DNA from: Dehalococcoidia bacterium
GTDB lineage: Bacteria > Chloroflexota > Dehalococcoidia > Lucifugimonadales > Australimonadaceae
Assembly (NCBI GenBank): GCA_965242755.1
Contig: OZ251500.1
Span: 3,055,415 to 3,119,414 of the forward strand
DNA: 64,000 nt
Direction of reading: 5' to 3'
Shown here: piece after piece, positions 10,587 through 56,708 of the stretch
Layout of the letters: each line of letters starts with the position of its first letter
How positions within the stretch are numbered: position 1 is the stretch's first letter
Notes under the pieces: generated by a model
Databases searched by the model: none
The model's input: only the letters and a program-made list of their open reading frames with translations
Told to the model about the DNA's origin: nothing
Made by a program: the position numbers and the translations under genes

Positions 10587-10655
10587 CCATCCCTCTCCCG
10601 CTAGGCGGGAGAGGGGGCAGAACGCTGCCCGGCGGCGCTCACCAGGCTTGCTTGC
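10587..10655. repeat. Imperfect direct repeat of the menB 3' end plus hairpin (second copy 12039-12105)
   Basis: CCATCCCTCTCCCGCTA(G/A)GCGGGAGAGGGGGCA...CGCTCACCAG(G/C)CTTGCTTGC occurs on both sides of the Fic gene. Confidence 0.75.
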
Positions 10656-10694
10656 CGCCTGCCTTTTGGTCGTCGTTCCCGCGTAGGCGGGAAT

Positions 10695-11915
10695 CTACCG
10701 CCGCCGTCCCAGCAAGCGCGAGAGTTCCGCCATCGCCGGATGTTCGGCGGACGCCGCGGACGGCATACGCTCCCACCGCTCCAGCAGTTCCGCCTCCGAC
10801 TGCTGCGGCCAGTCCAAGTTGACGGCGATGCGCTCGTCGCTGAATACGATTGCGGACAGATCGAGCAACCCGACGAGGTCGCGGAGGAGCGCGCGCTCCG
10901 CGAATTTGAGATGCTTGTAGTGGACGGAAGCCTGTTCGGTTAGGGTCGGCAAGTCGAGCGGGCCGCCGTCCAGCAGCAGGTTGAGAATCCGCAGTTGCCT
11001 ATCCGCCAACAGTCTGCGGCGGGGGCTGCGGAGCCGTCCGAACAGCGACGTTGCGAATTCGCGGTAGAGAGTCCGCTTCGTGTTCGCGATGATCCGCTCG
11101 GCGAGCGCGTCGCACCGGTCGGCGACCGCCGGCAGCGCGAACGTTAGGAACGGCGTGAGGTCATGCCCGCTCCGACGGGATTCCCATAGCGCGGCGAGGT
11201 ACTCGTCCTTGCGCTCGTAGTAGTAGTTGGAGAGGCTGACCATCACCATATTGTTGACGCCGGCGGACCGCAGCATAAACGCCTCCAGCGCGCGGGCGGC
11301 GCGTCCGTTGCCGTCGTCGAAAGGATGCATCGCTCCGATGTGGTAGTGGGCGGCCATCGCCTGGACGATGCGGTCGTGCCGACGGAACTCCCCGTTGACC
11401 GCCTCGACGAGCGCGTTGAAAGCGGCGCGGCATTCGCCGCCTCCTTCGACGCCTCGGCAGCGCGGCGTTCCGAAGGTGACGTTGCCCAAGCGCGTCGCGC
11501 CCGGCTCGCAGTGGTCGTCGTCGCACCCGGTGACGATGCGCCGGTGAATGCCGAGAATCAGGTCGGACGTCACCGGCCGGCCCGCGGGGAGCGCGCCAAG
11601 CCAGCGGTAGGCGGCGTTGGCTGCCCGCAACTGCCGCTGCGAGCGCGTCAAGTCAACCCGGAATTCGGCTCCGGGGGCGAGCGCCTCTTCCTGCTCGCGC
11701 TCGGTGAACTCGGCGCCTTCGATGCGGGACGTGCCGACGGCCTCCAGGCGGAGTTGCTCCTCGTGGGCTTGCTCGATCCACTGCGGGAGGCGCGGCATCC
11801 GGTTGAGAACGCCCGCGGCGGTCTTGGCCTCAATCAGAGGTCCGGAGACGGCGGCGAGGTCATATCTCGCCCACTGCTCAGGGGGAGCGTAATGGCTTAT
11901 GCGCGGGGATGTCAT
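10695..11915 (-). CDS. Fic-family protein
   Basis: Canonical HPFDDGNGRAAR motif and N-terminal TSRIEG inhibitory-helix-like motif. Start is uncertain; the ORF extends to 12035. Confidence 0.9.
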   Translation of the reverse strand: MTSPRISHYAPPEQWARYDLAAVSGPLIEAKTAAGVLNRMPRLPQWIEQAHEEQLRLEAVGTSRIEGAEFTEREQEEALAPGAEFRVDLTRSQRQLRAANAAYRWLGALPAGRPVTSDLILGIHRRIVTGCDDDHCEPGATRLGNVTFGTPRCRGVEGGGECRAAFNALVEAVNGEFRRHDRIVQAMAAHYHIGAMHPFDDGNGRAARALEAFMLRSAGVNNMVMVSLSNYYYERKDEYLAALWESRRSGHDLTPFLTFALPAVADRCDALAERIIANTKRTLYREFATSLFGRLRSPRRRLLADRQLRILNLLLDGGPLDLPTLTEQASVHYKHLKFAERALLRDLVGLLDLSAIVFSDERIAVNLDWPQQSEAELLERWERMPSAASAEHPAMAELSRLLGRRR

Positions 11916-12089
11916 ATCCGGCTCGTTTCCGGTTTCATTTCGCAATTTCACTCCTAAATTTACCAGGATTGGCCGTTTCATTTCAAGTTCATTTCCGCGC
12001 CGTTTCGCGTTTCGCTTGCGCCCCGCCGCCGCCATCGCCCCATCCCTCTCCCGCTAAGCGGGAGAGGGGGCATGCGCCATCAGCACCGC

Positions 12090-12896
12090 TCACCAGCCTT
12101 GCTTGCGGTAGGCGGAGAAGTCCGGGGGGCGCTTCTCGTTGAAGGCGCGGGCGCCCTCCTCCGCCTCGTCCGTGTTGTAGAAGAGGTGCACCGCGCCGTG
12201 CGCCATCTGCTGCAAGCCGTAGGCGTAGTCGGTGTCCTGATTGAACGCCGCCTTGAGGAAGCGGATCGCGGTGGGGCTCATCTCCAGAATGCGCTCCGCC
12301 CACCCCCGCGCCTCGTCCATCAGCCGCTCCTGCGGAACGACTTTGTTGACGAGCCCCATCTCCAGCGCCTCTTGCGCGGAGTACTGCCGGCAGAGGTACC
12401 AGATCTCGCGCGCCTTCTTCTCGCCGACGGCGCGGGCGAGGAACACCGCGCCGAATCCGGCGTCGAAACTGCCGACGCGCGGGCCGGTCTGCCCGAACAC
12501 GGCGTTTTCCGACGCGATGGAGAGGTCGCAGATTACGTGGAGGACGTGGCCGCCGCCGATGGCGTAGCCGTTGACGGCGGCGATGACCGGCTTGGGAATC
12601 ATACGGATGGCGGCGTGGAGTTCCGTGATGCGGAGTTTGGCGCCGCCTGGGCCGTCCGGGTCGTCGCGGTAGCCGTCCTTCCCGCGCGCCTTCTGATCGC
12701 CGCCGGACGAGAACGCCTTGTCGCCCGCGCCCGTGAGGATGACGGCGCCGACCTCGTCGTCGTCCCAAGCGTCGCGGAACGCGGCGATCATCTCGTCCAC
12801 CGTGCGCGGCCTGAAGGCGTTGCGGACTTGCGGGCGGTTGATCGTAACGACGGCGATGCCGCCGCTCTTCTCGTAGAGGACGTCGGTGTAGGCCAT
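12090..12896 (-). CDS. menB: 1,4-dihydroxy-2-naphthoyl-CoA synthase (MenB/BadI crotonase subgroup)
   Basis: [34 protein letters not shown] and [14 protein letters not shown] BadI-like ring hydrolase cannot be excluded. Confidence 0.78.
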
Positions 12897-12996
12897 AGGC
12901 GATAGTCTACGCGACGGTGGCGCGCTCCGCGAAGCGGCGGCTTGATTCCCGCTTGCGCGGGAACGATGTCCGGTAGGCCGCTCTCCCGACTCCGCG

Positions 12997-19034: not shown

Positions 19035-19035
19035 G

Positions 19036-28612: not shown

Positions 28613-28664
28613 GAATCTACCGGGAACACCCCACAGCAACCGAAGAACAGGAGGCCCCACGACA

Positions 28665-28940
28665 ATGCAAACCCAAATCCGCTCCCTCGAACGCCAACTC
28701 GCCTGCCAACTCGCCCAAGTCAAACTCGAACCCCTCGTCGAAGACTTCGTCGACCGCTGGATGGACGCCAACGAACTCGGCCAACCCCGCCCAGACATGC
28801 TCGAACTCGTCCAAGCCTCATCGAAGCCATCGTCCACGGCTTCGCCCAAGTCCGCGGCGGCGACGACTGCAAAACCTGCAAGTGCCCCGCCCGCAAACTC
28901 CTCGGCGGCTACTCCGACTACATGCGCGACTTCCTCTAAG
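28665..28940 (+). pseudogene. Frameshifted duplicate of the 29313-29684 gene
   Basis: Near-identical DNA lacking 97 bp (equivalent to 29466-29562) deleted between GCC microhomologies. Confidence 0.85.
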
Positions 28941-29192
28941 GAAACCTTGGCGCGCCCCTCCTTCCCCGCGCAAGCGGGAACCCAGTCGGCGCGATAGCGC
29001 CAAGACGGGGCGCCCCGCGCCCCGTCCCCATCAATCCCCGCCGCCACGTCATTCCCGCGAAAGCGGGAACCTACTGGAAACCAACCCCATAGGAGACCTA
29101 TGCATAACCTACCGCCCTCCCCGCGCAAACGGGAACCCAACCCGGCGCGCAGCGCCAACCCCGCCCTCTCCTTCTGGGAGAGGGCGGGGTTG

Positions 29193-29280
29193 GCCCCCAC
29201 GTAGCGGCGGGTGAGCGTAGCCCCCCACGTAGCGGCGGGTGAGCGTAGCCCCCCACGTAGCGGCGGGTGAGCGTAGCCCC
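29193..29280. repeat. 28-bp tandem repeat x3
   Basis: GCCCCCCACGTAGCGGCGGGTGAGCGTA repeated head to tail with no spacers. Confidence 0.9.
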
Positions 29281-29312
29281 ACAGCAACCGAAGAACAGGA
29301 GGCCCCACGACA

Positions 29313-29684
29313 ATGCAAACCCAAATCCGCTCCCTCGAACGCCAACTCGCCTGCCAACTCGCCCAAGTCAAACTCGAACCCCTCGTCGAAGACTTCGTCG
29401 ACCGCTGGATGGACGCCAACGAATTCGGCCAGCCCCGCCCCGACATGCTCGAACTCGTCCAAGCCGCCGCCGAACAGGAAATCCCCCTCCTCACCATCAA
29501 CGTCCTCGACCAGTACCTCCGACGCTGCGAACGCAAAAACGAAATCCCCGACGAAACCCGCCTCATCGAAGCCATCGTCCACGGCTTCGCCCAAGTCCGC
29601 GGCGGCGACGACTGCAAAACCTGCAAGTGCCCCGCCCGCAAACTCCTCGGCGGCTACTCCGACTACATGCGCGACTTCCGCTAA
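29313..29684 (+). CDS. Hypothetical protein (123 aa) with CxxCxC motif
   Basis: AGGAGG RBS, same C/A-ending codon bias as the HTH gene, CKTCKCP motif. Confidence 0.7.
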   Translation: MQTQIRSLERQLACQLAQVKLEPLVEDFVDRWMDANEFGQPRPDMLELVQAAAEQEIPLLTINVLDQYLRRCERKNEIPDETRLIEAIVHGFAQVRGGDDCKTCKCPARKLLGGYSDYMRDFR

Positions 29685-31349: not shown

Positions 31350-31525
31350 GCGCCGGGGGGGCGCGCCAGCGCCATCCCCGCCCTCTCCTTCTGGGAGAGG
31401 GCAGCCGCGAAGCGGCGGGTGAGGGTTGCACCAATCGGACACCCGCCCCTTGCGCCGCGCGCCCCCGCTATCCTACGATTCCCCCGCGTCCCCAACCCCA
31501 ACCCCGCCCCCGCGACGGAGAAGCA

Positions 31526-34639: not shown

Positions 34640-35044
34640 ATGGACATCTGGGACGATTTCTTCGGGGGCGGGCGCAAGCGCGCCTCGCTGAAAGACTTGA
34701 AGCCTCCCCTGCACCAACTGCAGAAGGGCAAGTGCATGTACTGCGGCGTGAAACTCCGCGAAGGGGACGGGCACGTGGACCACAAGCGCCCTTTCTCCCG
34801 GGACGGAGGGGAGAACCCGAAGAACATGCAACTGCTGTGCGGGCCTTGCAACACGCGCAAGGGGGCGCTTACCGACGCGGAGTTCCGCCGCCGGTTCAAG
34901 TCCGTCCTCTCGGCCAACAAGGATGCGCCCCCGGCTAGGGAGATACCGCTTTCCAAGTTCGAGGCGGTGGCGAAAGAGGTTGCGGTCAAAAAGGCGAAGA
35001 CCGCGAAGAAGCGCAGGGAGAGCGACCCCTTCGGCTTCTTCTAG
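34640..35044 (+). CDS. Stand-alone HNH endonuclease
   Basis: CMYCG...VDHKRP...NMQLLCGPCNTRKG. Confidence 0.88.
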   Translation: MDIWDDFFGGGRKRASLKDLKPPLHQLQKGKCMYCGVKLREGDGHVDHKRPFSRDGGENPKNMQLLCGPCNTRKGALTDAEFRRRFKSVLSANKDAPPAREIPLSKFEAVAKEVAVKKAKTAKKRRESDPFGFF

Positions 35045-35152
35045 CCCGCGATCCGTCGCCGTCGCCGCAACCACCGCCCAGCGCGCTGATTGCCTCCTGG
35101 CGTAAAGCGTATAATGTTCGCGCGCCCCGCATGGGGCAAGGGAGCGACCGAT

Positions 35153-35662
35153 ATGGCGAAACCAGGAGGGACGGCCAGTCCGCGTCCGTCCGCCCCAAGG
35201 ACGACGCGGCAGCCGAAGATGGTGGAAGGGCATAGCGTCCACCGCGACCGGTTCCTGCTCCACGCTGAAGAAATGCTGGGCAGGCGAGACCGGCTGCAGG
35301 CGTCGGAGAAGATATGGGGAGCCGCCGCTCATGCGGTCAAGCAGGTTGCGCGCCGGCGCCGGTGGCCGTGCACATCTCATGAGGACTTGCGCGACATCGC
35401 CCGCTACCTGAGCGACAAGGGCTCTTACCTGAGCAACGAGATCAATGCGCTCTTCGCGGCGGCGGAGTCGTACCACGAGAACTTCTACGCGGACACGCGG
35501 TCTGTGCCCGGCATCCGCGCAGGGTTGCAGGACGTCAAACGGCTGGTGGCTCTCCTGACGCAGTTGGACGAGACGCTGCCGCTCTCTCTCGCGCCGCCGC
35601 GCGGGCGAGACTACAAGGGCTACGAGAAGCGGCATCAGCGGGCGTTGGCGCGCGCGCCGTAA
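35153..35662 (+). CDS. PaREP1-like HEPN-fold protein
   Basis: QASEKIWGAAAHAVK...SH...YHENFY pattern; TATAAT at 35110. Confidence 0.75.
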   Translation: MAKPGGTASPRPSAPRTTRQPKMVEGHSVHRDRFLLHAEEMLGRRDRLQASEKIWGAAAHAVKQVARRRRWPCTSHEDLRDIARYLSDKGSYLSNEINALFAAAESYHENFYADTRSVPGIRAGLQDVKRLVALLTQLDETLPLSLAPPRGRDYKGYEKRHQRALARAP

Positions 35663-35734
35663 GCGAACGCGGAAGCGCAGGGAGCGCGAGCTCCTTTGGC
35701 TTCCGACCCACGATAAGGAGCAAGACGGACAACT

Positions 35735-36690: not shown

Positions 36691-37365
36691 TTGCCCAACC
36701 GCGTCATTCCGCTCGAGCCCGTCCCTCCGGGCGGCGGGGACAACGGCGGCGACGGCCCGCTCGCGTTCACCGACGTCGTCGTCCTGCTGCATCTCGAAAA
36801 CGCGCCGTCGCATACGCGCCAGGGGGACTCGTTCTTTGAGAGCGAGGCGCTCGCTGAAGCGGCGGTCGCCGCGTTCGGGCTCGGCTGCGCCGTCGGCGTG
36901 GACTTCCCCGCCCGCATCCTGCCGATCCTGGAGCAGACGCACCCGGGCGAGGTCGAGCGCATCGTCGCGGAGTGCGCGGAGCCGCTGGAGCGGCAAGTCG
37001 CCGCCGCGCGCCAAGCGACGGAGGCGCTCGCGCCCGAGGACTTCCTGCACGACCTGCTCGAGACGTTGGATGAGTCCGAGCATGCCGACGCGGAAACCGC
37101 GCAGAACGCCGTCAGCATGAGTTTCGAGTACGGCCTTCTGCTCGCCAACGCCAGCCGCTCCGCCGCGCTCGTGCTCCGCAACGCGCTCAACCGCGCGACG
37201 GCGGACGCGCTGCGCGCCGCGTCGAGCGAGGACGAGGGGGAGGGCGCGGAGGACGATCCGTCCGCCTCGTCCGACCTGGAAGACGAGCCGCCGTTCGAGT
37301 CGTTGCAGGAACTCGCCGCGGAGATGGTGAGCGCTTACGAAGCCGACATCGGCTTTGGGGAGTAG
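36691..37365 (+). CDS. Acidic hypothetical protein (copy 1)
   Basis: Host-like codon usage, directly follows mdh, duplicated at 41427-42069. Confidence 0.75.
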   Translation: MPNRVIPLEPVPPGGGDNGGDGPLAFTDVVVLLHLENAPSHTRQGDSFFESEALAEAAVAAFGLGCAVGVDFPARILPILEQTHPGEVERIVAECAEPLERQVAAARQATEALAPEDFLHDLLETLDESEHADAETAQNAVSMSFEYGLLLANASRSAALVLRNALNRATADALRAASSEDEGEGAEDDPSASSDLEDEPPFESLQELAAEMVSAYEADIGFGE

Positions 37366-37679
37366 CGCGCGGGGGGCGCCGCAGGGCGAGGCGAGCCGGA
37401 GCTCTAGGCGGGCCGGTCGGTTCGTGGTCGTTTCATTGCGCCGTCTCCTTGCGCCGCCGTGCTCCGCGAGCGCTGCGGCCGGGGGTAGGATAGCGCAACG
37501 CCCTCGTCATCGAACTAGGACTGGGCTTGGCGTTGCACCATCGGAGTCGGTGGCGGTGGCGCCACCACCGCTGAGACATCGATTGAGCGGCGGAGTAGGG
37601 TATTGACAAGACGCGGGGAAATGGGGAATCCTTTGGAACACGGGCGACATGATGCATGGATTGCAAGGGTACGTGACTG

Positions 37680-40106
37680 TTATCTCACGGCCAAGTGTAG
37701 CCATTCACTCTGGTACCGCTGCAACTCAGCGTGAATCTTAGGATTCGAAAATGTCAATTGCGCCCACCTAAACCATTGAGTCCAGTCATTCCGAAGTGAT
37801 GAAGGAATAGACACTATCCCCCAACTGATTCCGAAGCGGTTCATTGTGCTGAAAAAGGTCTGGTAAGGATGCTCAGAAGCCTCCCAATTGGGAAAACTTC
37901 GCGCGGAAAGCAAGTTTCTCACAGCATCGCGGAGAATGTTGCTGTCGCCTGTAGCGATAGCAATTCTTCCCAGTATAGTTCCAAGGGTGTTGAATGCAAA
38001 AGGATGCCTGTGAATCACAAGGGAATGCTCTGCGTATGAGCGTGCTTGCTCATTGTTTCCCACTTTAGATTCGAACAACGCACGCTGTTCCCAGTAACGC
38101 CCATTCCAATCGAAAAGAGGCTGTATGTTGGCGTAGAAATTCCTACCTGGTTCGGCCCCTATCAAACGATGCACTGTTTCTTGGTCCATTAATCTCCTGA
38201 CCAACCGATATGGCCTAGACTGGTTCGTAATCGCGGGAACATCAATATGAGGAGCCAAGCCATGCGCGAGCCGGTAGAGGGCGTCTTCTTTGTCTCCTCG
38301 TGGGATAGCCCATTCAACTGAAGTTGAAGCCGTGATCCGATGTGGAGGATGAACCCCGCTGGTGTCTACAGTGAATATGCTCTGCTCTTGGGCAAGACCC
38401 ACCAGCCTATTCACAGGCAACCCTGCAATTGTCGTAGCGATTCCCAAAGGCAATGAGTAGCCTAGTTCATAAGCAATGCTTGCCGCTGCATAAGTTCTCT
38501 TCGTACGCTCATCCAACTGGTTATAGGTATCCTGTATCTTTTGCCTGAAACCTGCTCCGCCTTCGAGGTTTGCCATGCCCTCAAACAACCGGCGCGAGGC
38601 TGTCTTTCTGAAGTAATCTTGTTGCCGCGCACGGCTTTCGCGTGTAATTTTCCCGAGCCTCCGGCGTGAACTCAATTTGTCAAGAAGAGACTCTATATCC
38701 CGATCGGAGAGGTACTTGTATTCGTAGATGTGCAAGATTTCAGGCTTGATCTCACGCTCAAGGACTTGGCGACGGTTTAACCTTTCGGCTCCGATAGCAA
38801 GCAAGTTAGTATTGCTGGATTCGCACTGAGATACCAGGTCTCTTAGCGAATGCGCAAAGTCTGCGCAATTGTCAAATAGCAAAACCGTCATTGGCGAATG
38901 CATCAACCAATCAATCGCGGCATCCACGTCTAGTGCTTCATCCCCGCGAAATGAAAAAACATGATGCCCTTCGGCGATAAAATACTGAGCAATCCTAAGC
39001 AATCCAGTTGACTTCCCTGATCCAGCATAGCCCGTTAGCATGTGGACTTTCTGTGCGCTATCGTTTGTTCCATGCATTTCTGACCTAATGCTGTTTAGCG
39101 CATTAGCTGTCGCTTCAATACGAGCGTCATCATCCGAGAGTATATCCCCCCAACTAGGCTCATAGCCTGAGTAGAATTTGTCTGAATTAGAAGGGTTGTA
39201 TGTTCTGAGGTCGACGAATTGTTGCAAAAATTTCACTCCCGACAGAGAAAAGGCTCGCGCATACTGTCCTGTGAAATACGCAGGAAACTTTGCGACTTCG
39301 GTTTTCAACGTTTGCATGAACTCATCCGCGTCTGCCTCTATGACAGCTAAACCTAAACGTGTTAGCTCGTCACGCTCGAATGGAGACACGCTTTTCAATA
39401 CTATGACGGAAGGAAATCCCCTGGTCTTATCAGCGGCTGATTGTCGCAGGGCAGGCTCGAGATCAAATTCTGTTTGCAGCGTTGCCCCTATGACAATAAA
39501 CGGCTGTTCTGTGAATTCATCCACGAAAACCGCATGCCAGGCCCGAGGGTCGCGAACATTTGACATATATTCCTGGATAGAGAAGACCAGATCGGATATG
39601 GTATCCTTTCGAGCATAGCCATGCAGGTGTATAATTTGATTGTCGCGACGCCTGTCATCTCGGAATTTGGAAGTGTGGTCGAAACGGTCAATATGGATTC
39701 CGCGGTTATTGTACACGGTTTCAATAACGTCATCGATATTCAGCGTCCACATTCTGCGCCATTGGAAATCGGCCACGATGTCCTGCCAAGCAGGTTTGCA
39801 GCCAGTGAACCAGCGCCCCATGAAACTGGCGATATCCCCAGGGGTGCGCTGAGCGACGTAGCTGTAGGCACGTGGCAAGGTGACCTCCACACGCTCCCCG
39901 CCCACACCCACAGGAACGCCGAACTCAGACACTATTCTGTCCCTGAGTTCGGGCCCGGACGGCAGAGGAACGCCATTTCCCCCCATCGCGCCGACCGAGG
40001 CACCTGCACCAAGGAGCAAGGAGTACTCGCCCCTGGCAACGCCCTCGGCGACTCTCGCCAGCAATTGTCCGCCGATTTGCATACGCTCCACTCCCGTGTC
40101 CTCCAC
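37680..40106 (-). CDS. SIR2-like domain + STAND P-loop NTPase + TPR-like protein (Avs5/Dsr-like defence candidate)
   Basis: LLLGAGAS, TLNID and HLHG (SIR2_2); Walker A GYAGSGKST; Walker B VLLFDN; helical C-terminus; lower GC. Confidence 0.82.
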   Translation of the reverse strand: MEDTGVERMQIGGQLLARVAEGVARGEYSLLLGAGASVGAMGGNGVPLPSGPELRDRIVSEFGVPVGVGGERVEVTLPRAYSYVAQRTPGDIASFMGRWFTGCKPAWQDIVADFQWRRMWTLNIDDVIETVYNNRGIHIDRFDHTSKFRDDRRRDNQIIHLHGYARKDTISDLVFSIQEYMSNVRDPRAWHAVFVDEFTEQPFIVIGATLQTEFDLEPALRQSAADKTRGFPSVIVLKSVSPFERDELTRLGLAVIEADADEFMQTLKTEVAKFPAYFTGQYARAFSLSGVKFLQQFVDLRTYNPSNSDKFYSGYEPSWGDILSDDDARIEATANALNSIRSEMHGTNDSAQKVHMLTGYAGSGKSTGLLRIAQYFIAEGHHVFSFRGDEALDVDAAIDWLMHSPMTVLLFDNCADFAHSLRDLVSQCESSNTNLLAIGAERLNRRQVLEREIKPEILHIYEYKYLSDRDIESLLDKLSSRRRLGKITRESRARQQDYFRKTASRRLFEGMANLEGGAGFRQKIQDTYNQLDERTKRTYAAASIAYELGYSLPLGIATTIAGLPVNRLVGLAQEQSIFTVDTSGVHPPHRITASTSVEWAIPRGDKEDALYRLAHGLAPHIDVPAITNQSRPYRLVRRLMDQETVHRLIGAEPGRNFYANIQPLFDWNGRYWEQRALFESKVGNNEQARSYAEHSLVIHRHPFAFNTLGTILGRIAIATGDSNILRDAVRNLLSARSFPNWEASEHPYQTFFSTMNRFGISWGIVSIPSSLRNDWTQWFRWAQLTFSNPKIHAELQRYQSEWLHLAVR

Positions 40107-40224: not shown

Positions 40225-41253
40225 TCACGCGCCGCCGCAGCCCTCGTCGGGAGAGTCGGGGCCGTTGGCGCGGTGGCTTTCCACGAAGGATCGCATGGCG
40301 TCGACGTCGCCGGGGGCGGCGGTCGACGTCCAGCCCCACGCGGCGAGGGTGACGACCCCATCGGGGACGGCGGAGTGCGGCTGCATTAGGTAGCAGTCGG
40401 GGTAGCCGTCGAGCCCCTCGACGAAGGCGCGCAGGTCGGCGACGGCGGACTCGTCGGCGAGGGCGTAATTGAAAATGATTGCGCCGTTGCGGAGGTTGCG
40501 GACGACGGCCTCGTTGGGCTGCTGCTCCGTTTGGACGCCCCACGGCGCGCCCTCCGCCCAACTGGGGCCGGAGGTCGGCGGGTTTGTGTCGTATTCGGCG
40601 GTCGCGCCGGGCTCGAGCGCATCGCCGTCCTGAATGGCGAGTTGGGTTCCGGCGCGGAGCGGCGCCGTTCCGGCGCGGGGCTGCGCCTGCTGCATGTCGG
40701 TTGCAGTTGCGCAGCGTTTTCTGTGAAGATCGGTGTAAGCGTCCCGCGTGGCGCCGACGACCACCTGTATGGTCAGCTCAGGCACGCCGATCTCCCGCAA
40801 GAGGCCGGCCATTAGGGTGTAGAATGTCTCGCTCTCCGCGCCCGCAAGGACGGCGCAAGCGATTTCCCGACGAAAGGGATCGTCCGAATTCGCGAGATCC
40901 CCGATCTCCGCCACCAACCTGTTTATTTCCGGTAGCGCCAATTCCATCACAAGAAACGGGTTGTCCCACATCGCCTCGTCTATCGCCGCTATCTCAAGTA
41001 GCACTGCTCGCAGATCAAGGGTCAATATCGTAGGGGTAGCAGTCGGCGCTGCGGTCGGAGTAGCCGTCGGCGTGGGCGTAGGGGTCGCGGTCGGCGTTGG
41101 GCTGGGCGTTGGTATCGGGGTAGACGTGGGCGTAGGAATTGGCGTAGGCGTAGCCGTTGGCGCAGGAGTTGGCGTAGCCCCGGGCCCGCACGCCGCGGCG
41201 AGCGCGACTGCGAACGTAGCGGCGGCGACAACCGCGAGCGCCTTGCAAGCCAT
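40225..41253 (-). CDS. Lipoprotein with Pro/Thr linker and C-terminal DUF3105 domain
   Basis: GGAGG RBS, lipobox LAAAC, (PT)n linker, YDTNPPTSGP...VVRNLRNGAIIFNY...LAAWG. Confidence 0.75.
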   Translation of the reverse strand: MACKALAVVAAATFAVALAAACGPGATPTPAPTATPTPIPTPTSTPIPTPSPTPTATPTPTPTATPTAAPTATPTILTLDLRAVLLEIAAIDEAMWDNPFLVMELALPEINRLVAEIGDLANSDDPFRREIACAVLAGAESETFYTLMAGLLREIGVPELTIQVVVGATRDAYTDLHRKRCATATDMQQAQPRAGTAPLRAGTQLAIQDGDALEPGATAEYDTNPPTSGPSWAEGAPWGVQTEQQPNEAVVRNLRNGAIIFNYALADESAVADLRAFVEGLDGYPDCYLMQPHSAVPDGVVTLAAWGWTSTAAPGDVDAMRSFVESHRANGPDSPDEGCGGA

Positions 41254-41384
41254 TGAACCCTCCTGTGACACGGAGCGAAGGTGCTTGCAACAGGTCTTCT
41301 GCCCGACGTGGACCGACAGGAGGGCGCGCGGCCCTCCGTCCGTGATAAGCGGTCCGTAAGCGTGAGCGGCTAGCAGCCGACCTG

Positions 41385-42053
41385 TTGCGACGACGACTCT
41401 ACCGCAAAGCGGCGTTGGAGGCAAGGGGCGGCGACGGCCCTCCCACGTTCACTGACGTCGTCGTTCTGCTGCATCTCGAAAACGCGCCGTCGCATACGCG
41501 CGGGGGCGACTCGTTCTTTGAGAGCGATGCGCTCGCGGAGGCGGCGGTCGCCGCGTTCGGGCTCGGCTGCGCCGTCGGCGTGGACTTCCCCGCCCGCATC
41601 CTGCCGATCCTGGAGCAGACGCACCCGGGCGAGGTCGAGCGCATCGTCGCGGAGTGCGCGGAGCCGCTGGAGCGGCAGGTCGCCGCGGCGCGCCAAGCGA
41701 CGGAGGCGCTCGCGCCCGAGGACTTCCTCCACGATCTGCTCGAGACGCTGGAGGAGTCCGAGCATGCCGACGCGGAAACCGCGCAGAACGCCGTCAGCAT
41801 GAGTTTCGAGTACGGCCTTCTGCTCGCCAACGCCAGCCGCTCCGCCGCGCTCGTGCTCCGCAACGCGCTCAACCGCGCGACGGCGGACGCGCAGCGCGCC
41901 GCGTCAGGCGACGGCGATAGCGATGATGAGCGCGAGGCGGACTCGATATCCACGCCGTCCGACATGGAAGATGAGCCGCCGTTCGAGTCGCTGCAGGAGC
42001 TCGCCGCGGAGATGGTGAGCGCCTACGAAGCCGACATCGGCTTCGGGGAGTAG
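41385..42053 (+). CDS. Acidic hypothetical protein (copy 2, original 5' end replaced)
   Basis: Near-identical to 36691-37365 from GGDGP onward. Start is uncertain (TTG at 41385 or 41415). Confidence 0.6.
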   Translation: MRRRLYRKAALEARGGDGPPTFTDVVVLLHLENAPSHTRGGDSFFESDALAEAAVAAFGLGCAVGVDFPARILPILEQTHPGEVERIVAECAEPLERQVAAARQATEALAPEDFLHDLLETLEESEHADAETAQNAVSMSFEYGLLLANASRSAALVLRNALNRATADAQRAASGDGDSDDEREADSISTPSDMEDEPPFESLQELAAEMVSAYEADIGFGE

Positions 42054-42245
42054 CGCGCGGGGGCGCCGCTTTGCGCCGACTGGCTTCCCGCGCTACGCGG
42101 GCAGGGCGTGGCAACCCTCACCCGCCGCTACGCGGCTGCCCTCTCCCAGAGGAGAGAGGGCGGGGGCGGCGCTATCGCGCCGCATGGATTCCCGCCTACG
42201 GGGGCAGGGCGGCAGGTTATGCAAAGGTCTCCGCCGGGGAGCGCC

Positions 42246-46463: not shown

Positions 46464-46528
46464 CCGCGTCCGCGCGGCGGGCGCATGCGGCGCATACAAG
46501 AGGAAGGCGCAACCAAGGAGGTTGGACA

Positions 46529-46777: not shown

Positions 46778-46823
46778 GCGCGCCGGTCGTGCAGGACATA
46801 CCCAATTCGAGGAGGCGTCCGAC

Positions 46824-47372: not shown

Positions 47373-47381
47373 GAGCGGGCG

Positions 47382-47954
47382 ATGGCCAAAGCGCCGATGG
47401 CGAAACGCTACGCCCAAGCCCTCTTCGCGCTCGCTGAGGCGGAGAATGGCCGGGAGGCGTGGCTCGACGACCTCGCGGGCATGCAGGAGCAAATGGCGGA
47501 GCCGTCCGTCGCGCTCTTCTTCCGCGAGCCCCGCGTTCCGGCGGAGCGCAAGCAGGAGGCCGCCGCGCAAATCGCGGAGGGCGCCCATCCGCTCGCGCGC
47601 AACTTCCTGGGGCTGCTCGTCCGGCGGCAGGCGACCGGGCTGCTGGCGGCCATCGTCGGCGAGTACCGACGTCTGCTGAACGAGCGGCTGGGCCGGGCGC
47701 AGGCCGTCGCGACGACCGCCGCGCCGATGTCGGCGGAGCAGCGCGCGAGGCTCGCCGCCTCGCTCGGGGCGATGCTCGGCAAAGAGGTCGTTCTCGACGC
47801 GCGCGTGGATCCTGAAATCATCGCCGGCGTCGTCGTCCGGGTCGGCGATCAAATCATTGACGGCAGCGCGCGCGCGCGCCTGAACGGCCTGCGTCAGAGT
47901 CTGGGGCGGCAAGCGCCGGCCCCGGCGTCAAACGAAACGGAGGAGCGGGCATGA
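47382..47954 (+). CDS. atpH: ATP synthase F1 subunit delta
   Basis: AKRYAQALF and [21 protein letters not shown]. Confidence 0.95.
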
Positions 47955-49459: not shown

Positions 49460-49472
49460 GAGAGAGCCCCTC

Positions 49473-50336
49473 GTGCCGAGCGTCAGGCAAATTCGCGGGC
49501 GGATACGCAGCGTCCGCAACACCTCGCGGGTCACTCACGCGATGCAGATGGTCGCCGCGTCCAAGATGCGCCGCGCCCAGGAAGCCGTCGTCGCGTCGCG
49601 CCCCTACGCCCGCAAGTTGCGCGAGGCGATAGGCGGCATCGTCGGGCGCGGCGCCGGCGATTCCGATTGGACGCACCCCCTGCTGGAGCGCCGGCCCGTC
49701 GGCGGCGTCCTCCTCCTCGCCGTGTCCCCCGACCGCGGCCTCGCAGGCGGCATGCCGGGCAACCTCACCCGCGCCGCGGGGCGGTTCGCCCAAACGCAGG
49801 AGCGCCCGGTGTCGGCGGTGACGGTCGGCAAGAAAGCGCGCGACTTTATGGTCCGCGCCGGGATTCCCCTCCGCGCGTCGTTCACCGACGTCGGCGACAG
49901 GCCGACGATGGCCGACACGCTCGCCGTCACCCGCCTCGTGGAGCGGCTGTACACGGAGGGCGAGGTTGACGAGGCGCACATCGCCTATACCCGATACGTC
50001 AACACCGTCGTACAGCAGCCCGTCGTCGAGCGCTTGCTGCCCGTCGCCGCGGAGGGAATGGACGACGCGCCCGCGCCCGACGTCCTCTACGAGCCCGACG
50101 CGCAGACCGTGCTGGGCGCGCTGCTGCCGCGCTTTATGGAGATGCAGGTCTACCAGGCGTTCCTCGAGAACAACGCGAGCGAGCAGTCCGCGCGAATGGT
50201 GGCGATGAAGAACGCCACTGAAGCCGCCGAGGATATGGTCGCCGGCCTGACGTTGGAGTTGAACAAGGCGCGCCAGAACATGATCACCGCCGAACTGCTC
50301 GACCTCGTAGGAGGCGCGGCGGCGTTGGAAGGCTAG
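49473..50336 (+). CDS. atpG: ATP synthase F1 subunit gamma
   Basis: AMQMVAASK, DRGLAG, SEQSARMVAM and NKARQNMITAEL. Confidence 0.97.
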   Translation: MPSVRQIRGRIRSVRNTSRVTHAMQMVAASKMRRAQEAVVASRPYARKLREAIGGIVGRGAGDSDWTHPLLERRPVGGVLLLAVSPDRGLAGGMPGNLTRAAGRFAQTQERPVSAVTVGKKARDFMVRAGIPLRASFTDVGDRPTMADTLAVTRLVERLYTEGEVDEAHIAYTRYVNTVVQQPVVERLLPVAAEGMDDAPAPDVLYEPDAQTVLGALLPRFMEMQVYQAFLENNASEQSARMVAMKNATEAAEDMVAGLTLELNKARQNMITAELLDLVGGAAALEG

Positions 50337-50342
50337 AGAGCC

Positions 50343-51488
50343 TTGCTCAAGCAAGTCCACATAAAGAACTTCAAGAGCATCGCCGCCGCAGTCGTTGACC
50401 TCAGCGGATTCACCGCGCTTGTTGGCCCGAACGGCGCGGGCAAAAGCAACTTCGTGGACGCGCTCCGATTCGTGACGGACAGCCTCACGGTCTCGCCGGA
50501 TTACGCGATTCGGAACCGCGGAGGCATAGACCTCGTTCGCATGAAGTCGACCGGCCACCCGGCGAACTTCGGATTCAGGATCCGTATGGAATTGGAGCCG
50601 GGCCCGGCGGACTATTCGTTCGAAATCAAGGCGGAGCAGCGCGGGCGCTTCTCCGTCAAGCGCGAGCGGTTCATCAGCAATTCGGCGCGCTTCGAAGTCA
50701 AAGACGGCGACTTGATCAGCGAAACCATCAGCGGCTCCATAGAGAAAGACAGGCTTGCGTTGCCCGCGCTTTCGGGATTTCCCGAGTTCCGCCCCGCTTA
50801 CGACGCGATGGCGAACTTCAGGTTCTACGCGCCCGTGTCCGACAAGATCCGTCAGGCGCAGGAACCCGATCAGGGAGAAACGCTCCAGCCCGACGGCGGC
50901 AACTCCGCCGCGATTCTCCGCGAAATACGCCGTTGGGATGAGACGAAATACGACCGGGTGCGTAAGTACCTCGCGCAGATCGCGCCGAGCGTCAAGGATG
51001 TCGGCTACGCCAAAGCGGGTACGAAAGAAACGATTGCGTTCTATCAGGACGTGGGAGCGGCTAGTCCGTGGGAGTTCGGAGCCATCAGCATGTCCGACGG
51101 AACGCTCAGGACGCTAGGCGTGCTGCTCGCGGTGTTCCAAATGAACACGCCAACGCTGACGGTCATAGAAGAGCCGGACGCCGCCGTCCACCCGGCCGTC
51201 CTCGAAACATTGCTCGACCTGCTGCTGGAAGGCAGCGAACGCTCCCAAATGATCGTGACGACCCATAGCCCCGAATTGCTCGACCACAAGAGCGTGGACG
51301 ACGACGCGATCCGCATCGTTGATTCGGAGAGGGGAAAGACGAGGATCGGCCGGATGTCGCCCGGCGCGAGGCGCGTATTGGCCGCCCGTCTCGCGTCGCC
51401 CGGCGAAATGCTGCTACAGAACGAATTGGGGATAGACCGCGAGCAATTGCGCGAGGCCAGATTGTTCGGACCGGCGAGAGCGGCATGA
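50343..51488 (+). CDS. AAA_21/ABC-type ATPase (defence-associated)
   Basis: NFKSI, GPNGAGKSN, MSDGTLR, IEEPD and TTHSP. Confidence 0.88.
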   Translation: MLKQVHIKNFKSIAAAVVDLSGFTALVGPNGAGKSNFVDALRFVTDSLTVSPDYAIRNRGGIDLVRMKSTGHPANFGFRIRMELEPGPADYSFEIKAEQRGRFSVKRERFISNSARFEVKDGDLISETISGSIEKDRLALPALSGFPEFRPAYDAMANFRFYAPVSDKIRQAQEPDQGETLQPDGGNSAAILREIRRWDETKYDRVRKYLAQIAPSVKDVGYAKAGTKETIAFYQDVGAASPWEFGAISMSDGTLRTLGVLLAVFQMNTPTLTVIEEPDAAVHPAVLETLLDLLLEGSERSQMIVTTHSPELLDHKSVDDDAIRIVDSERGKTRIGRMSPGARRVLAARLASPGEMLLQNELGIDREQLREARLFGPARAA

Positions 51489-52075
51489 TCGTTCCTATCG
51501 TCGAGGGACAAGGGGAAGAGCAATCCGTCCGCATCGTGCTGGAGCGAATGATGGGGGACTTGGAGACCTACGCCGCCATAGACAAACCCTTTCGAGTGAA
51601 AAGGAACAAGATCGTTCAGCCCAACGAACTGGAGAGGTGCATCGACAGAATCTTCAACGCTCGCGAGAACGTCGGCGCCGTGCTGCTCCTCTTGGACGCC
51701 GACGACGACTGCCCCCAGGATTGCGGAGCGGAACTCAAGGCTCGGGGGCAAACCCATATCGGCGACAGGGGCTACTTCGGCGTCGCGCTGGCCAACCGCG
51801 AATTCGAGGCATGGTTCCTCGCCGACATGGAGGGGCTATCCGCTGGGATTGACGGCGCGCCCTTCATCGCCTTGCCGGATGACGTGGAGAGCGTTCGGGG
51901 CGCCAAAGAGCGGTTGCGCGAAGCGTTGGGGCAGCCTTATCGGCCCACGGTCGACCAAGCCGGGCTCGCTAGCCGCTTCGACCTCCGCCGCGCCGCCGAG
52001 CGTTGCCGCTCGTTCCGAAAACTCCAATCGGAGTTGGCCCATATCCTGCAGTTCGCAGGCGCCGCCCGCGCCTGA
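51485..52075 (+). CDS. DUF4276-family TOPRIM-like protein
   Basis: IVEGQGE, LLDADDDCP, EFEAWFLAD, YRPTVDQ and SFRKL; ATGA overlap with the ATPase. Confidence 0.82.
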   Translation: MIVPIVEGQGEEQSVRIVLERMMGDLETYAAIDKPFRVKRNKIVQPNELERCIDRIFNARENVGAVLLLLDADDDCPQDCGAELKARGQTHIGDRGYFGVALANREFEAWFLADMEGLSAGIDGAPFIALPDDVESVRGAKERLREALGQPYRPTVDQAGLASRFDLRRAAERCRSFRKLQSELAHILQFAGAARA

Positions 52076-53518
<1,443 letters not shown>

Positions 53519-53593
53519 CGCGCGCGGCGCGTGCGCGCTAGTGTGACATCTGCCTATTGACCGCTTGCGTGCTCGCCTAGCAGACTAGGCGGT

Positions 53594-54400
53594 ATGCCTA
53601 TCTGCGCTTGCTTCCACGAGTTCGAGTTGACGCCCGACGGCGCCGGCAGGTTCCTGCTGGTCCTGGATGCGGAAGGGTATGTGCCGTTGCTCGCCGACAT
53701 ACTGGGGCCGTCCGGGTTAGCCGCCCAATCCCGGTTCGGATTGGGGGCATCCTACAATCTGACGGGCATCCAAGACGAGCAGCAAGTCAATGACTCTCTG
53801 TCCCCCTTCCGCCGAAGGATCGTCATCGGCTTGGATCAGGTTGACCAGTGCTATGCGCTGGGGCCGTACTCCGTCCGTGCGGGCGATGGCGTTTGGGACC
53901 ACCCTGAGTTCGGGGAAGCCGTCCGCCGCGCAAAGTACGCCAAAGACCAGAGCGCGAGGGTGATGCTATCCCACGAACTGGCGAATTTCGCCAAAAGCCA
54001 TCCTGGGATGAGGTCGGTCGCCGCCGTAGCCGCGCCCCCGAAGTTCGACCCTGAAGAGCTGAACCTCCCGCTCACTTAGGCGCGGTCTGTCGCTGAATCG
54101 CTGGATGCGAGCATCGCAAGCGCGCGAAAGATCCGTCCCACAGGCCCACAGAAAGATCTGGAAGGGCTTGACGACGAACGGGACGTGGCGGACCGAGTAA
54201 ACAACAGCGTGCAAGTGGACGACAGGATTCAGGGGAATGCCCTTGTTATTGACGATACGATCCGATCAGGCGGCATGGTCAGGGAGATGGGGAGGGCGTT
54301 GAAAGCGGCGGGCGCTGATAAGGTGTATGCTCTCTGCGTCGCTAAGGACGCGAAGTTCACCAACGGAGGCCTCAACTTGTCCCGTGAGCGGTGGCTATGA
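53594..54400 (+). pseudogene. ComF-like phosphoribosyltransferase interrupted by an in-frame TAG (54077-54079)
   Basis: ORFs 53594-54079 and 54185-54400 share one frame with no other stop between them. PRPP-binding motif LVIDDTIRSGG. Confidence 0.78.
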
Positions 54401-55098
54401 GCGACATCGTCACAATCCACCCTGCGGACGCGGCCTATCCCGAGAGCGTGCGCTCCGCGATGAAGCCGCTGACTCTGTACGCCGTCGGCTCCATCGACTT
54501 GCTGGAGCGCGACGCCATCGGAATATGCGGCTCCCGCGATGCCTCGCCGGAAGCGTTGCGCTACGCCTCCGACTTCGGGCGCGAGGCGGCGCGGCGCGGT
54601 TTCGTCGTCGTCAGCGGCTACGCGAAGGGGGTTGACCGGCAAGCGCACAAGGGCGCGCTTGAGGCCGGGGGGAGCACGATAGCCGTGCTGCCCGAAGGGA
54701 TCGATGGGTTCCGCGTCGCGCGGGAGTTGCGCCCGCTCGTGGATATGGAGGGCAACTTCCTCGCCGTGTCCATGTTCGAGCCCGCCGCCTCGTGGCAAGC
54801 CTGGCGGGCGATGGAGCGCAACAAACTGATCGTCGGCCTCTCGCAAGGGCTTTTCGTCGTTGAGGCGGACGAGCGCGGGGGCACGATCAACGCCGCGATG
54901 GAGTGCGCCCGGCAACGCAAACCGCTTTGGGCTGTGGCATACTCGGCAAGCGGGCTCGGAAGAGAAGGCAACAACCTGCTCCTCAGGCAAGAGATGGCCG
55001 TGCCGCTGAAGCGGCTGAGCGATGTCCGCGATGCCCTGGAGCAGGCCGCGTCGGGCGCGGCGCAAAGCGCAGGACAGATGGCGATGGCGCTAGGCTAG
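54397..55098 (+). CDS. DprA/Smf-like Rossmann-fold protein
   Basis: ICGSR, VSGYAKGVD, ERNKLIVGLS and GGT; ATGA overlap with the PRTase; lacks the extra domains of competence DprA. Confidence 0.88.
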   Translation: MSDIVTIHPADAAYPESVRSAMKPLTLYAVGSIDLLERDAIGICGSRDASPEALRYASDFGREAARRGFVVVSGYAKGVDRQAHKGALEAGGSTIAVLPEGIDGFRVARELRPLVDMEGNFLAVSMFEPAASWQAWRAMERNKLIVGLSQGLFVVEADERGGTINAAMECARQRKPLWAVAYSASGLGREGNNLLLRQEMAVPLKRLSDVRDALEQAASGAAQSAGQMAMALG

Positions 55099-55122
55099 GA
55101 GAACCGATGACCATCCGACTCG
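55093..55122 (+). repeat. 30-bp perfect direct repeat (second copy 56254-56283) containing a stop codon, RBS and the first 5 codons of atpC
   Basis: GGCTAGGAGAACCGATGACCATCCGACTCG at both sites. Confidence 0.95.
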
Positions 55123-55266
55123 CCCTGCCCGCCTAGGCGGGAATCCAGTCGGCGCGACAGCGCCAATGCCCCCTCTCCCGATGGCGGGAGAGGGGACGAG
55201 GGCGAGGGGCGGCGCGCAGCGGCGTAAGTGGAAATCCGGTATAATGGAGCGCACAGGGAGAACCGC

Positions 55267-56259
55267 ATGCTCAACGACCTCGTGCAGACCATCAAAACGC
55301 TCAAAGAGCGCATTACGGCGCACGCGCCCGAACTGCGACGGAACGAAATCCGTACTCGCGCAGTGCTCATAGACCCGATGCTTGCCGCATTAGGGTGGCC
55401 GGTCAGCGACCCCTCCGCCGTGGTCGTGGAGTACGAAGTCGGAGGTGGGCGCGCAGATTACGCTTTGCTGAGACGCGTGGACGACAGGCCTACTCTTGTC
55501 ATAGAAGCCAAGAAGTACGACGAGCCGTTAGATGCCCATCGTATGCAACTCCTAACCTACGCGTTGGGTCAGGGCATTCCTTATGGCTGCTTGACGGACG
55601 GCAACCGATGGCAAGTCTACGACATCTTCGCCGCCGTAAGGAGTGGTGAGCCGCAGCCGTTAGACCAAAGGTGCAGGTTAGACATCACGATTGCCGCCGA
55701 CCCTCCGGCGAGGTCGGCGTTGGCCCTCTTGGGCATATGGAGGCCCAACCTGCAGACCGACGGCCAGCTGGTGGAAGCCTCCTACCCTTTCCTGATGGAT
55801 GCCCTTAGTCAGTCCCCGTTAGAACCCGCGCCACCCATAGAGCCGCCCACTCCGACGATGGAGGTTGCCTCCGCGCCTGGTTGGACCTCTCTGACAGACA
55901 ATTTTGAGGTGAAGCACAGACCTGCGCCTAGCGAGATGCAGTTCCCTGGCAGCCCTGCGATAGCCGTGAGGAGTTGGCGGGGTATGGTTGTGGAAATTGC
56001 CCTATGGCTGCACGAGCAAGGACTGCTGTCTCGCCAAAACTGTCAAATCCCCAGAGGCGAGCGCAGTAATCGCGTGATCTTCAGCCTGAACGGGATGCAT
56101 CCTAACGGCGAGCCATTTAGGAACCCCGTGCCGATCGAGCGCGTCGGCATGGTGCTGGAAGGTAACATGGATGGCGCAGCCTGTGTTCGTCTCGCGAAGA
56201 GGCTTCTCGCGCACTTCCGCCAAGATCCCTCGCAAGTCCGCATGAGGCTTCCCGGCTAG
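55267..56259 (+). CDS. HsdR-N-like PD-(D/E)XK nuclease-domain protein
   Basis: NEIRTRAVLIDPMLAALGW, VEY, RADYAL, IEAK, QLLTY and LTDG; own TATAAT at 55240. Confidence 0.82.
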   Translation: MLNDLVQTIKTLKERITAHAPELRRNEIRTRAVLIDPMLAALGWPVSDPSAVVVEYEVGGGRADYALLRRVDDRPTLVIEAKKYDEPLDAHRMQLLTYALGQGIPYGCLTDGNRWQVYDIFAAVRSGEPQPLDQRCRLDITIAADPPARSALALLGIWRPNLQTDGQLVEASYPFLMDALSQSPLEPAPPIEPPTPTMEVASAPGWTSLTDNFEVKHRPAPSEMQFPGSPAIAVRSWRGMVVEIALWLHEQGLLSRQNCQIPRGERSNRVIFSLNGMHPNGEPFRNPVPIERVGMVLEGNMDGAACVRLAKRLLAHFRQDPSQVRMRLPG

Positions 56260-56267
56260 GAGAACCG

Positions 56268-56708
56268 ATGACCATCCGACTCGAAATCGTAACCGCCGAG
56301 CGAACGCTCTTCGAAGGCGATGTCGACGCGCTCGCCGCGCCGGGCGTCGAGGGCGAAATCGGCGTGTTGCCCAAGCACGCCGCGCTGATGACCGTCCTGC
56401 AGCCGGGCGACCTCCGCTACCGCGTCAACGACGTCGAAGAGGAATTCTCCGTCACCGGCGGCTTCATCGACGTGCGCGGCGACCATGTGTCCGTCCTCGC
56501 CGACGCCGCGGAGCGCTCCGACGAGATCGACGTCGCGCGCGCCGAGGAGGCCGTCGCCCGCGCGCGCCGCCGCATCGAGGAGCACACCGGCGACGTCGAT
56601 CTCGAGCGCGCCCTCCGCTCTCTCCGGCGAGGCCAAGCGCGGCTCGACGTCACTCGCCGCCGTCGCCGCCGCGGAACGGGCGTCCCCTCCCGCGAAGCCA
56701 GCGCCTAG
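56268..56708 (+). CDS. atpC: ATP synthase F1 subunit epsilon
   Basis: EIVTAER, GEIGVLPKHA, GGF and IDVARA. Confidence 0.96.
   Translation: MTIRLEIVTAERTLFEGDVDALAAPGVEGEIGVLPKHAALMTVLQPGDLRYRVNDVEEEFSVTGGFIDVRGDHVSVLADAAERSDEIDVARAEEAVARARRRIEEHTGDVDLERALRSLRRGQARLDVTRRRRRRGTGVPSREASA

Follow-up and report, generated by a model that had tools for sequence, protein, structure and literature searches.

Insertion with long target duplication was reportedly first described by Nobusato, Uchiyama, Ohashi and Kobayashi (Gene 2000), for restriction–modification (R-M) genes, and has lacked a mechanistic explanation since 2000. The available passages of a later paper describe R-M genes inserted with long target duplications of variable length and without mobility genes, mostly in naturally competent bacteria, and suggest double-strand breakage and an invade-amplify-release cycle, a proposal without a demonstrated mechanism (Furuta, Abe, Kobayashi, NAR 2010, PMC2853133). 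The same passages select for a single copy of the repeat in an insert-free relative, a duplication of >30 bp, an insert of <20 kb without mobility genes, both R and M homologues in the insert and a repeat that is not multi-copy in the genome. They also list lone mcrA genes and orphan methylases (PMC2853133), implying that the requirement for both R and M served for screening and is no part of what defines such an event. Here we examine a 64,000-nucleotide window (G000:C1:3055415-3119414) of a Dehalococcoidia genome, G000, a single 3.16-Mb contig with 67.5% GC, in which three inserts carrying a SoFic-like Fic gene, a SIR2-STAND gene with a DUF3105 gene, and an HsdR_N-like nuclease gene each lie between direct repeats of host sequence. 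These are insertions with long target duplication (25–645 bp) at gene boundaries, real and beyond chance. They do not form a new class of insertion; as far as those passages go, they match the published kind (PMC2853133), and what is new is the presence of several non-R-M defence cargos and the unusual frequency of such events in this genome.

A second described system bears on the hairpins found beside some of these inserts. [quoted passage not shown] Chloroflexota are not mentioned in those passages, nor is NTS tied there to cassette insertion with target duplication. By titles and abstracts, the literature retrieved by the phrase 'long target duplication' is confined to R-M, methylation, insertion sequence (IS) or rearrangement contexts, with no SoFic, SIR2-STAND or toxin–antitoxin cargo among them.

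Three defence inserts between duplicated host sequences

Genes were called crudely by third-position GC (GC3) and annotated with Pfam and PADLOC, and repeats within the window were located by self-blastn and repeat finding. Gene-order counts were taken over the 18 same-genus relatives drawn, of which G002 is generally nearer to G000 than G004 is. The three inserts measure 1.13, 1.37 and 4.05 kb. As the first-pass annotation had claimed, all three lie between direct repeats of adjacent host-gene sequence and all three retain an intact copy of the host gene; the empty alleles that it proposed to look for were found in relatives, as cargo-free single-copy sites, for each of them.

The HsdR_N-like insert interrupts the atp operon. 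Its left 30-bp copy (55093..55122) comprises the stop codon of the upstream gene, a ribosome-binding site and the first 16 nt of atpC, and the right copy (56254..56283), identical at 30/30 bp, runs on into an intact atpC (56268-56708). Between them lies a gene for a PD-(D/E)XK-type, HsdR_N-like protein (55228..56259(+); Pfam HSDR_N, 3.9e-06), the best genus homologue of which is 50% identical; its reading frame terminates on a TAG within the duplicated 30 bp. The exact empty site is preserved in G004 and G002, where a DprA-like gene, a ribosome-binding site and atpC are joined through one copy of the 30 bp. One copy in these relatives and two around 55123-56253 in G000 imply an insertion with a 30-bp target duplication.

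The SIR2-STAND insert involves a far longer repeat (92.7% identity over 645 bp) that covers nearly the whole of a gene encoding a 224-aa protein. Copy 1 (36745..37382) lies within the intact gene (36691-37365(+)), the ortholog of a single copy in G002 and G004, and copy 2 (41427..42069) is a 5'-truncated version, without about 18 codons, that carries the original downstream flank; the upstream flank thus stays with copy 1 and the downstream flank with copy 2. The cargo comprises a SIR2 + nSTAND5 NTPase gene with about 50% GC (37680..40106(-); Pfam) and a gene for a DUF3105-domain protein with native GC and paralogues elsewhere in G000 (40225..41424(-); Pfam). In all 18 relatives mdh is followed by one 224-aa gene, and the SIR2-STAND gene was found in none of them; neither SIR2 nor DUF3105 occurs at the 224-aa gene site of G002 or G004, where that gene is single. 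Over the central 400 bp the two copies are 95–100% identical to each other, compared with 88–94% for either copy against G002, indicating that the duplication arose in place, in this lineage. Import of the second copy with the cargo from another species was rejected, as both copies carry this lineage's substitutions. A search for related loci with the 224-aa protein returned one distant match (40%) in a Dehalococcoidia metagenome-assembled genome, which was of no use for a tree. GC is about 50% over the SIR2-STAND gene region (window 37600-40106) but 60–67% in the 5' ~330 bp of the gene; foreign and native sequence may be fused in it.

At the boundary of coaE and a menB-like enoyl-CoA-hydratase gene (12090-12896(-)), a SoFic-like Fic-domain gene (10695..12035(-); Pfam Fic, 7.6e-11; PADLOC SoFic, 1.6e-38) lies between repeat copy A (10576..10655), which separates coaE from Fic, and repeat copy B (12029..12106), which holds a hairpin element and the true 3' end of the menB-like gene. 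The copies are 81% identical over 80 bp and have three parts: a CCCTCTCCC..GGGAGAGGG hairpin, a spacer, and the final ~19 nt of the menB-like gene with its stop codon. The first-pass annotation had recognized this repeat as ~68 bp of the menB end; the repeat is present, but it spans about 80 bp, and about half of it is a multi-copy hairpin element with a strong predicted DNA fold (z = -4.7), the gene-end part not being multi-copy. In G004, coaE and the menB-like gene are 280 bp apart with only hairpins between them and no Fic gene at the site; a Fic paralogue (80%) sits at another locus of that genome.

These features resemble those of long-target-duplication R-M insertions, as far as the available passages describe them (PMC2853133): one to a few defence genes are enclosed by repeats of tens to hundreds of base pairs that match a single copy in a cargo-free genome, overlap gene ends and vary in length; integrases, transposases and inverted ends are lacking; cargo GC is often deviant; and the species carries DNA-uptake genes. 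Measured against the cut-off of >30 bp given in those passages, the repeats of ~80 and 645 bp pass, and the atpC repeat of exactly 30 bp is at the limit, not above it. In contrast to the R-M insertions, the three window cargos are not R-M systems (SoFic, SIR2-STAND + DUF3105 and a lone HsdR-N-like nuclease), the host is a member of the Chloroflexota, and one insertion, within the atp operon, has duplicated a translation start. The density of events is also far higher here, the repeat-flanked intervals in 3.16 Mb numbering in the dozens.

The inserts are integrase-free, as had been stated for them. Pfam searches revealed no integrase or transposase domain in the inserts, no tRNA was found in the window, and terminal inverted repeats at the ends of the HsdR-N, Fic and SIR2 inserts, and of a HEC-01 insert described below, were no better than in shuffled sequence. 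A transposon model was rejected on the lack of inverted ends at these four inserts. Transposons and IS elements likewise leave a direct target duplication around the insert, but here there is neither a transposase nor an inverted end, and 645 bp is far beyond transposase staggers; the first-pass argument that repeats of such variable length (25–645 bp) speak against transposase target duplications holds. The IS30-type element IS1630 is said to duplicate hairpin targets of variable length. Integron cassettes and islands that target tRNAs or gene ends share single-gene cassettes or a restored gene end; here, by contrast, there is no integrase, attC-like site or tRNA, and the repeat identity is that of an in-place duplication, not of an element-borne copy.

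Could the duplications be chimeric joins of strain variants made during assembly? The runs that hold this sequence contain more than one strain (run X8), which would allow for such joins. Yet the genome is one 3.16-Mb contig, contigs of run X5, which may be the source sample, cross positions 50340, 52112, 55122 and 56253 without differences, G002 shares the Fic arrangement, and G004 has a repeat-flanked methylase cassette (see below) with both repeats. An assembly artefact, which the first-pass annotation had named among the findings that would undo its reading, is scarcely credible on this evidence. Among the contig joints listed there was neither an empty joint skipping 55123-56283 nor a circular junction of a cassette. 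Depth in run X8 was 34.8 over the HsdR-N insert and 124–185 beside it; contig depth cannot show absence, and nothing was drawn from these values.

Repeat-flanked intervals across the genome

A k-mer screen with low-copy words (<=4 copies) for repeats 200–15,000 bp apart, which the 30-bp and 645-bp repeats of the window passed, returned 711 direct segments and 41 inverted segments across G000. Clustering and filtering left 65 cleaner repeat-flanked intervals, a set that includes repeats inside large repetitive genes and rests on the crude GC3-based gene calls. Twenty-two intervals (21 loci, one of them with two) were annotated with Pfam. By our own reading of that annotation, about half carry methylase, nuclease, toxin–antitoxin, TIR/SLATT or ABC-ATPase cargo, and 1 of the 22 carries IS cargo. 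The Pfam-annotated cargos include a C5 methylase between two PaREP1 copies, an N6_N4 methylase cassette, SLATT with ThsB-TIR, BrnT with a methylase-HNH fusion, AAA_21 and AAA_15 ATPases, a D12 methylase at a leuB hotspot, and a Metallophos + AAA_27 pair behind a 184-bp copy of the start of an SbcC-like gene.

A sequence-level check placed the N6_N4 methylase cassette (G000:2434.7-2436.9 kb) between two copies (~47–60 bp) of a piece that takes in the start of dcd and sequence upstream of it. At the dcd site, G002 has one repeat copy and no cassette, and by coordinates dcd abuts its downstream gene in three further relatives (G005, G014 and G017); G004 has the cassette together with both repeat copies. 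Presence in G000 and G004 and absence from the nearer G002 imply loss by repeat recombination or lateral spread. A similar pattern was seen for a further repeat-flanked cassette within the window, a PaREP1-family gene (35090..35662(+)) next to an HNH gene (34640-35044). The 3' end of the HNH gene (34999..35052) is the left copy of a ~50-bp degenerate repeat, the second, degenerate copy of which (35665..35714) lies just upstream of mdh; the local score of this repeat was 27, compared with a maximum of 18 in 300 shuffles. Terminal inverted repeats of the PaREP1 insert scored 16, which was reached by 2 of 300 shuffles. Between icd and mdh the HNH and PaREP1 genes are absent from G002 and present in G000 and G004.

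This patchiness invites a Campbell-type explanation, in which a circle bearing cargo and a host segment would integrate by a single RecA-dependent crossover. Excision of a repeat-flanked cassette in a sibling cell could supply the circle, and transformation could bring it in. The distribution of both the methylase cassette and the HNH/PaREP1 genes (in G000 and G004, not in G002) fails to track relatedness, repeats of 25–645 bp equal or exceed the length required for homologous recombination, and the uptake gene ComEC is present (22 of the 22 genus genomes counted, G000 included). An invade-amplify-release cycle is also what Furuta et al. propose for repeat-flanked R-M units, in the available passages (PMC2853133). 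Set against this, repeat-mediated deletion explains the patchiness equally well, both 224-aa copies carry this lineage's substitutions, so that the donor would have been nearly the same strain, and, a weak point, no circular-junction contig appears among the joints listed. Such a circle would spread cassettes and would not create them, leaving the origin of the first repeat-flanked unit unexplained; we regard it as possible but unlikely as an account of the inserts.

One locus carries sequence copied from a distant site. At G000:1948191-1953439 (L028) an 831-aa GSDH/cytochrome c gene is duplicated in tandem, and the junction contains 230 bp of filler copied from the DprA-like/atpC junction 1.16 Mb away (87% and 82%), apparently before the HsdR-N insertion. 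Filler from so distant a site fits copy-type repair. At another locus (L046), a complex 5.3-kb insert separates two genes that are adjacent in about 19 relatives. This locus also contains an HTH_38 (IS30-like) element (L046:372-1578) with 12 further copies of 95–100% identity in G000.

Other accessory segments of the window vary in their flanks. Clear repeats flank three of the roughly ten that we counted, a fourth is flanked by a degenerate repeat, and at least one lacks a repeat altogether. Three defence-type cassettes, all in operon orientation, lie within the F1Fo ATP synthase operon (45591-56708). In addition to the HsdR_N-like gene, HEC-01A (an AAA_21 ATPase) and HEC-01B (DUF4276) lie between atpG and atpD (50343..52075(+); PADLOC 2.5e-119 and 7.8e-54, respectively), which abut in 18 of 18 relatives. 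A PsyrT/ShosT-like phosphoribosyltransferase and PsyrA/ShosA-like pair (53594..55098(+)) lies between atpD and atpC; its toxin-type PsyrT/ShosT-like gene is broken by one in-frame TAG at 54077-54079, across which the PsyrT match extends when the codon is read as X (2.8e-12), and the PsyrA/ShosA-like DprA-domain gene (54391-55098(+)) is intact. Among the 18 relatives, atpD and atpC abut in 12, are separated by a DprA-like gene in 3 and fall at a contig end in 1; in the other 2 (G002 and G004) the DprA-like/atpC pair sits at a locus apart from atpD.

The first-pass annotation had also pointed to a local duplication at 28.6/29.3 kb. The duplication exists (28629..29684), with 98% identity between 28629-28817 and 29277-29465 and 99% between 28815-28939 and 29560-29684, but it proved to be a two-form module: a ~310-bp unit in a short form (28629-28939) and a long form with 94 bp extra (29277-29684), with a hairpin cluster between them, that recurs as a short and long pair at G000:539537-540404, 2.5 Mb away, at 99% identity. 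The long form holds a 123-aa reading frame of no known family. An N6_N4 methylase-HNH fusion family, represented in the window at 31238-33103, has at least five copies in the genome (others at L041, L046, L051 and L028), several of them in repeat-flanked intervals; the homologues of the window copy in G002 and G004 match both of its ends and not its middle. Farther upstream, a low-GC segment (1060-4916; 51–59%) carries an Eco57I/type IIG-like methylase-nuclease fragment and two unknown open reading frames, with no match in G002 or G004 and no flanking repeat seen, and an rve_3/HTH IS element (7742-8857) is absent from G002 and present in several copies in G004.

NTS hairpins and candidate Ssn nucleases

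The hairpin that had been reported at one junction in each of the Fic and atpC cases is present at 10671-10698 and 55121-55148. The former (10671..10698(+)) lies between repeat copy A and the Fic stop codon, ~15 nt inward of copy A. The latter (55121..55148(+)) abuts the left 30-bp repeat, with its 5' end within 2 nt of the left end of the HsdR-N insert, and is followed at about 55170-55195 by a CCCTCTCCC..GGGAGAGGG hairpin. The proposed likeness to Neisseria dRS3 was borne out: the window contains 6 instances of the core ATTCCC-N8-GGGAAT, where 0.01 would be expected, and the hairpin fits the longer 28-nt Neisseria NTS consensus CGTCATTCCCGCGMAVGCGGGAATCYRG, which encompasses dRS3, with its asymmetric flanks included. 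A search of G000 with the two degenerate positions of the pattern, M and V, opened to N found 385 copies with 0 substitutions, 780 with <=2 and 1,427 with <=6.

Three small genes (G000:1434065-1434418, 1435143-1435454 and 772951-773328; loci L067 and L068) encode GIY-YIG proteins of 103–125 aa (Pfam GIY-YIG, 5e-16 to 1e-15). Each is flanked by NTS on both sides, within about 100 bp; all three lie within NTS hairpin clusters and two are a tandem duplicate. The proteins had no NCBIfam match, and PDB gave weak GIY-YIG matches only. On these sequence features we consider them candidate Ssn nucleases in a Chloroflexota. The 28-nt consensus, the hundreds of copies and the NTS-flanked small, single-domain GIY-YIG genes are shared with the NTS/SRM and Ssn system (Nat Commun 2025, PMC11893778), whose small GIY-YIG genes are of the cd10448 type and for which the available passages report cleavage and transformation data in Neisseria; the system in G000 is predicted from sequence.

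Do these hairpins direct the insertions? The first-pass annotation had inferred a trans-acting or recombination-driven mechanism; in one form of it, a recombinase of the Piv/IS110, RAYT or tyrosine type would recognize the hairpin and insert cassettes. A precedent exists in the phage recombinase that targets dRS3 in Neisseria, according to the passages cited (PMC11893778), with the same palindromic core, and the genome encodes one IS110-type protein (a DEDD_Tnp_IS110 match at G000:1598594-1599019, 1.46 Mb from the window) and two tyrosine recombinases. These genes are far from the window, however, no such recombinase lies near the inserts, and no Y1_Tnp match or Y1/RAYT gene was found in the genome. 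It also counts against this reading that the insertions are not within the hairpin, junction hairpins are intact, the repeats are host-gene sequence of variable length (25–645 bp) and not hairpin, inverted ends are lacking and the three cases have no conserved crossover sequence. The genome-wide counts do not favour it either. Hairpins occur in 569 of 1,924 intergenic spacers (about 30%). Among the 65 intervals, 10 have one at the left inner junction and 9 at the right (14–15%); the corresponding rate is 17% for random intergenic points and 6.7% for gene boundaries. The predicted enrichment at repeat junctions is thus no greater than the intergenic background. Forty-nine of the 65 intervals have a hairpin at neither junction, and the distance from boundary to hairpin ranges from 0 to thousands of nucleotides. 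We judge a hairpin-specific recombinase very improbable.

Alternatively, the GIY-YIG nucleases might cut incoming or displaced single-stranded DNA 5' of NTS, so that modules start at a hairpin and host repair joins them. The abundance of NTS (385 substitution-free copies, 1,427 with <=6 substitutions), the NTS on both sides of each GIY-YIG gene, as for ssnA, and the cleavage 5' of NTS and effect on integration of transforming DNA reported for Neisseria SsnA, in the passages cited (PMC11893778), would all suit this idea. The HsdR-N insert, whose start is 2 nt away from the 5' end of a correctly oriented NTS, is suggestive as a single case, and the Fic-case NTS lies ~15 nt inward of its repeat. 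Within the window, NTS stands at 6 of 16 gene-order junctions and at 1 of ~12 colinear spacers, a small tally confounded by spacer length. On the other side, 5 of 65 intervals, with a rough expectation of 1.5–3, have an NTS 5' end in consistent orientation <=10 nt from an inner repeat boundary, hairpins are no more frequent at junctions (14–15%) than in the intergenic background (17%), NTS is missing from the ends of the SIR2, HEC-01 and methylase cassettes, and cleavage by the GIY-YIG proteins is putative. We therefore view NTS-linked uptake as distinctly unlikely to explain the inserts. The hairpin role in insertion put forward by the first-pass annotation is also at odds with the Fic gene of G002, which has neither repeat nor hairpin, and with the HEC-01 insert, which has no repeat. 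The junction hairpins are probably bystanders, copies of a repeat that is common throughout the genome.

Gene order in the window is broken relative to G002 and G004 at no fewer than 16 junctions within 64 kb; matched blocks are 83–93% identical, and blocks of 1–9.5 kb map to scattered places in the two relatives. Such scrambling is unusual at 83–93% identity. In a wider version of the NTS idea, which we find quite improbable, NTS hairpins and Ssn-like nucleases would set the ends of modules that host end joining or template switching then pastes with target duplication. If true, this would amount to recombinase-free shuffling of defence cassettes and housekeeping operons, and it would account for the interruption of gene order in the genus every few kilobases, and for the hairpin clusters at many of these interruptions.

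Origin of the duplications

The account that we prefer, with a probability of roughly 0.55, is that host break repair captures or copies the cargo, that the overlap is duplicated in the process and that selection then acts for a regenerated host gene. Its starting points were observed directly: the repeats, the cargo-free sites, a 645-bp repeat that arose in place, inserts that lack both mobility genes and transposon ends, and direct repeats in excess across the genome. To these it would add a break, a source of cargo DNA, a repair pathway and a selective filter, each of which we infer. DNA with one or two defence genes would be joined into the chromosome at a gene boundary, leaving the target stretch on both sides, with no element-encoded or hairpin-specific recombinase involved. 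This could occur by either of two routes. In one, a broken or stalled end would copy or capture the cargo and replication would re-enter upstream of its point of exit (template switching); in the other, two sister-chromatid ends broken at different points would be joined around the cargo, for which Ku, found in 21 of 22 genus genomes with G000 among them, would be available. By either route the overlap would become the direct repeat. Selection would retain only those events that regenerate an intact host gene or its ribosome-binding site, which would explain why an intact host copy is always kept. The repeats could later decay, or recombine and remove the cargo cleanly.

Several observations weigh against this account, in addition to the composition of the 65-interval set described above. 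None of the junctions shows diagnostic microhomology, and template switching and end joining are both postulated steps. HEC-01 lies between atpG and atpD without a flanking repeat, implying that it entered without duplication and that duplication is not obligatory. In G002 the same site holds an orthologous Fic gene (89%), with both the repeat and its hairpin missing; the Fic repeat may postdate the arrival of the cargo, or G002 may have lost it. The SIR2 event is not a clean, simple insertion: the gene that follows the 224-aa gene in G002 and G004 corresponds to window position ~65.2 kb, which means that G000 also holds here a ~28-kb block (AMP-ligase, the atp operon, groESL and others) sited elsewhere in these relatives, and the SIR2 site is at the edge of that block. 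Six of eight extra loci (L039, L040, L042, L043, L047 and L048) have no definable empty site, their flanks being scattered in the relatives, and the 48-bp repeat at L046 was rejected as a target duplication, as it is internal to the 5.3-kb insert.

The hairpin survey places a Neisseria-type NTS/Ssn repeat system in a Chloroflexota, at the strength allowed by the candidate nucleases. With dozens of events, several complete same-genus genomes in which to date them, and Ku and DNA-uptake genes in the host, this lineage offers a good natural data set on insertion with long target duplication. It bears on which repair pathway acts in such insertions and on how defence genes reach sites that have no hallmarks of mobile elements.

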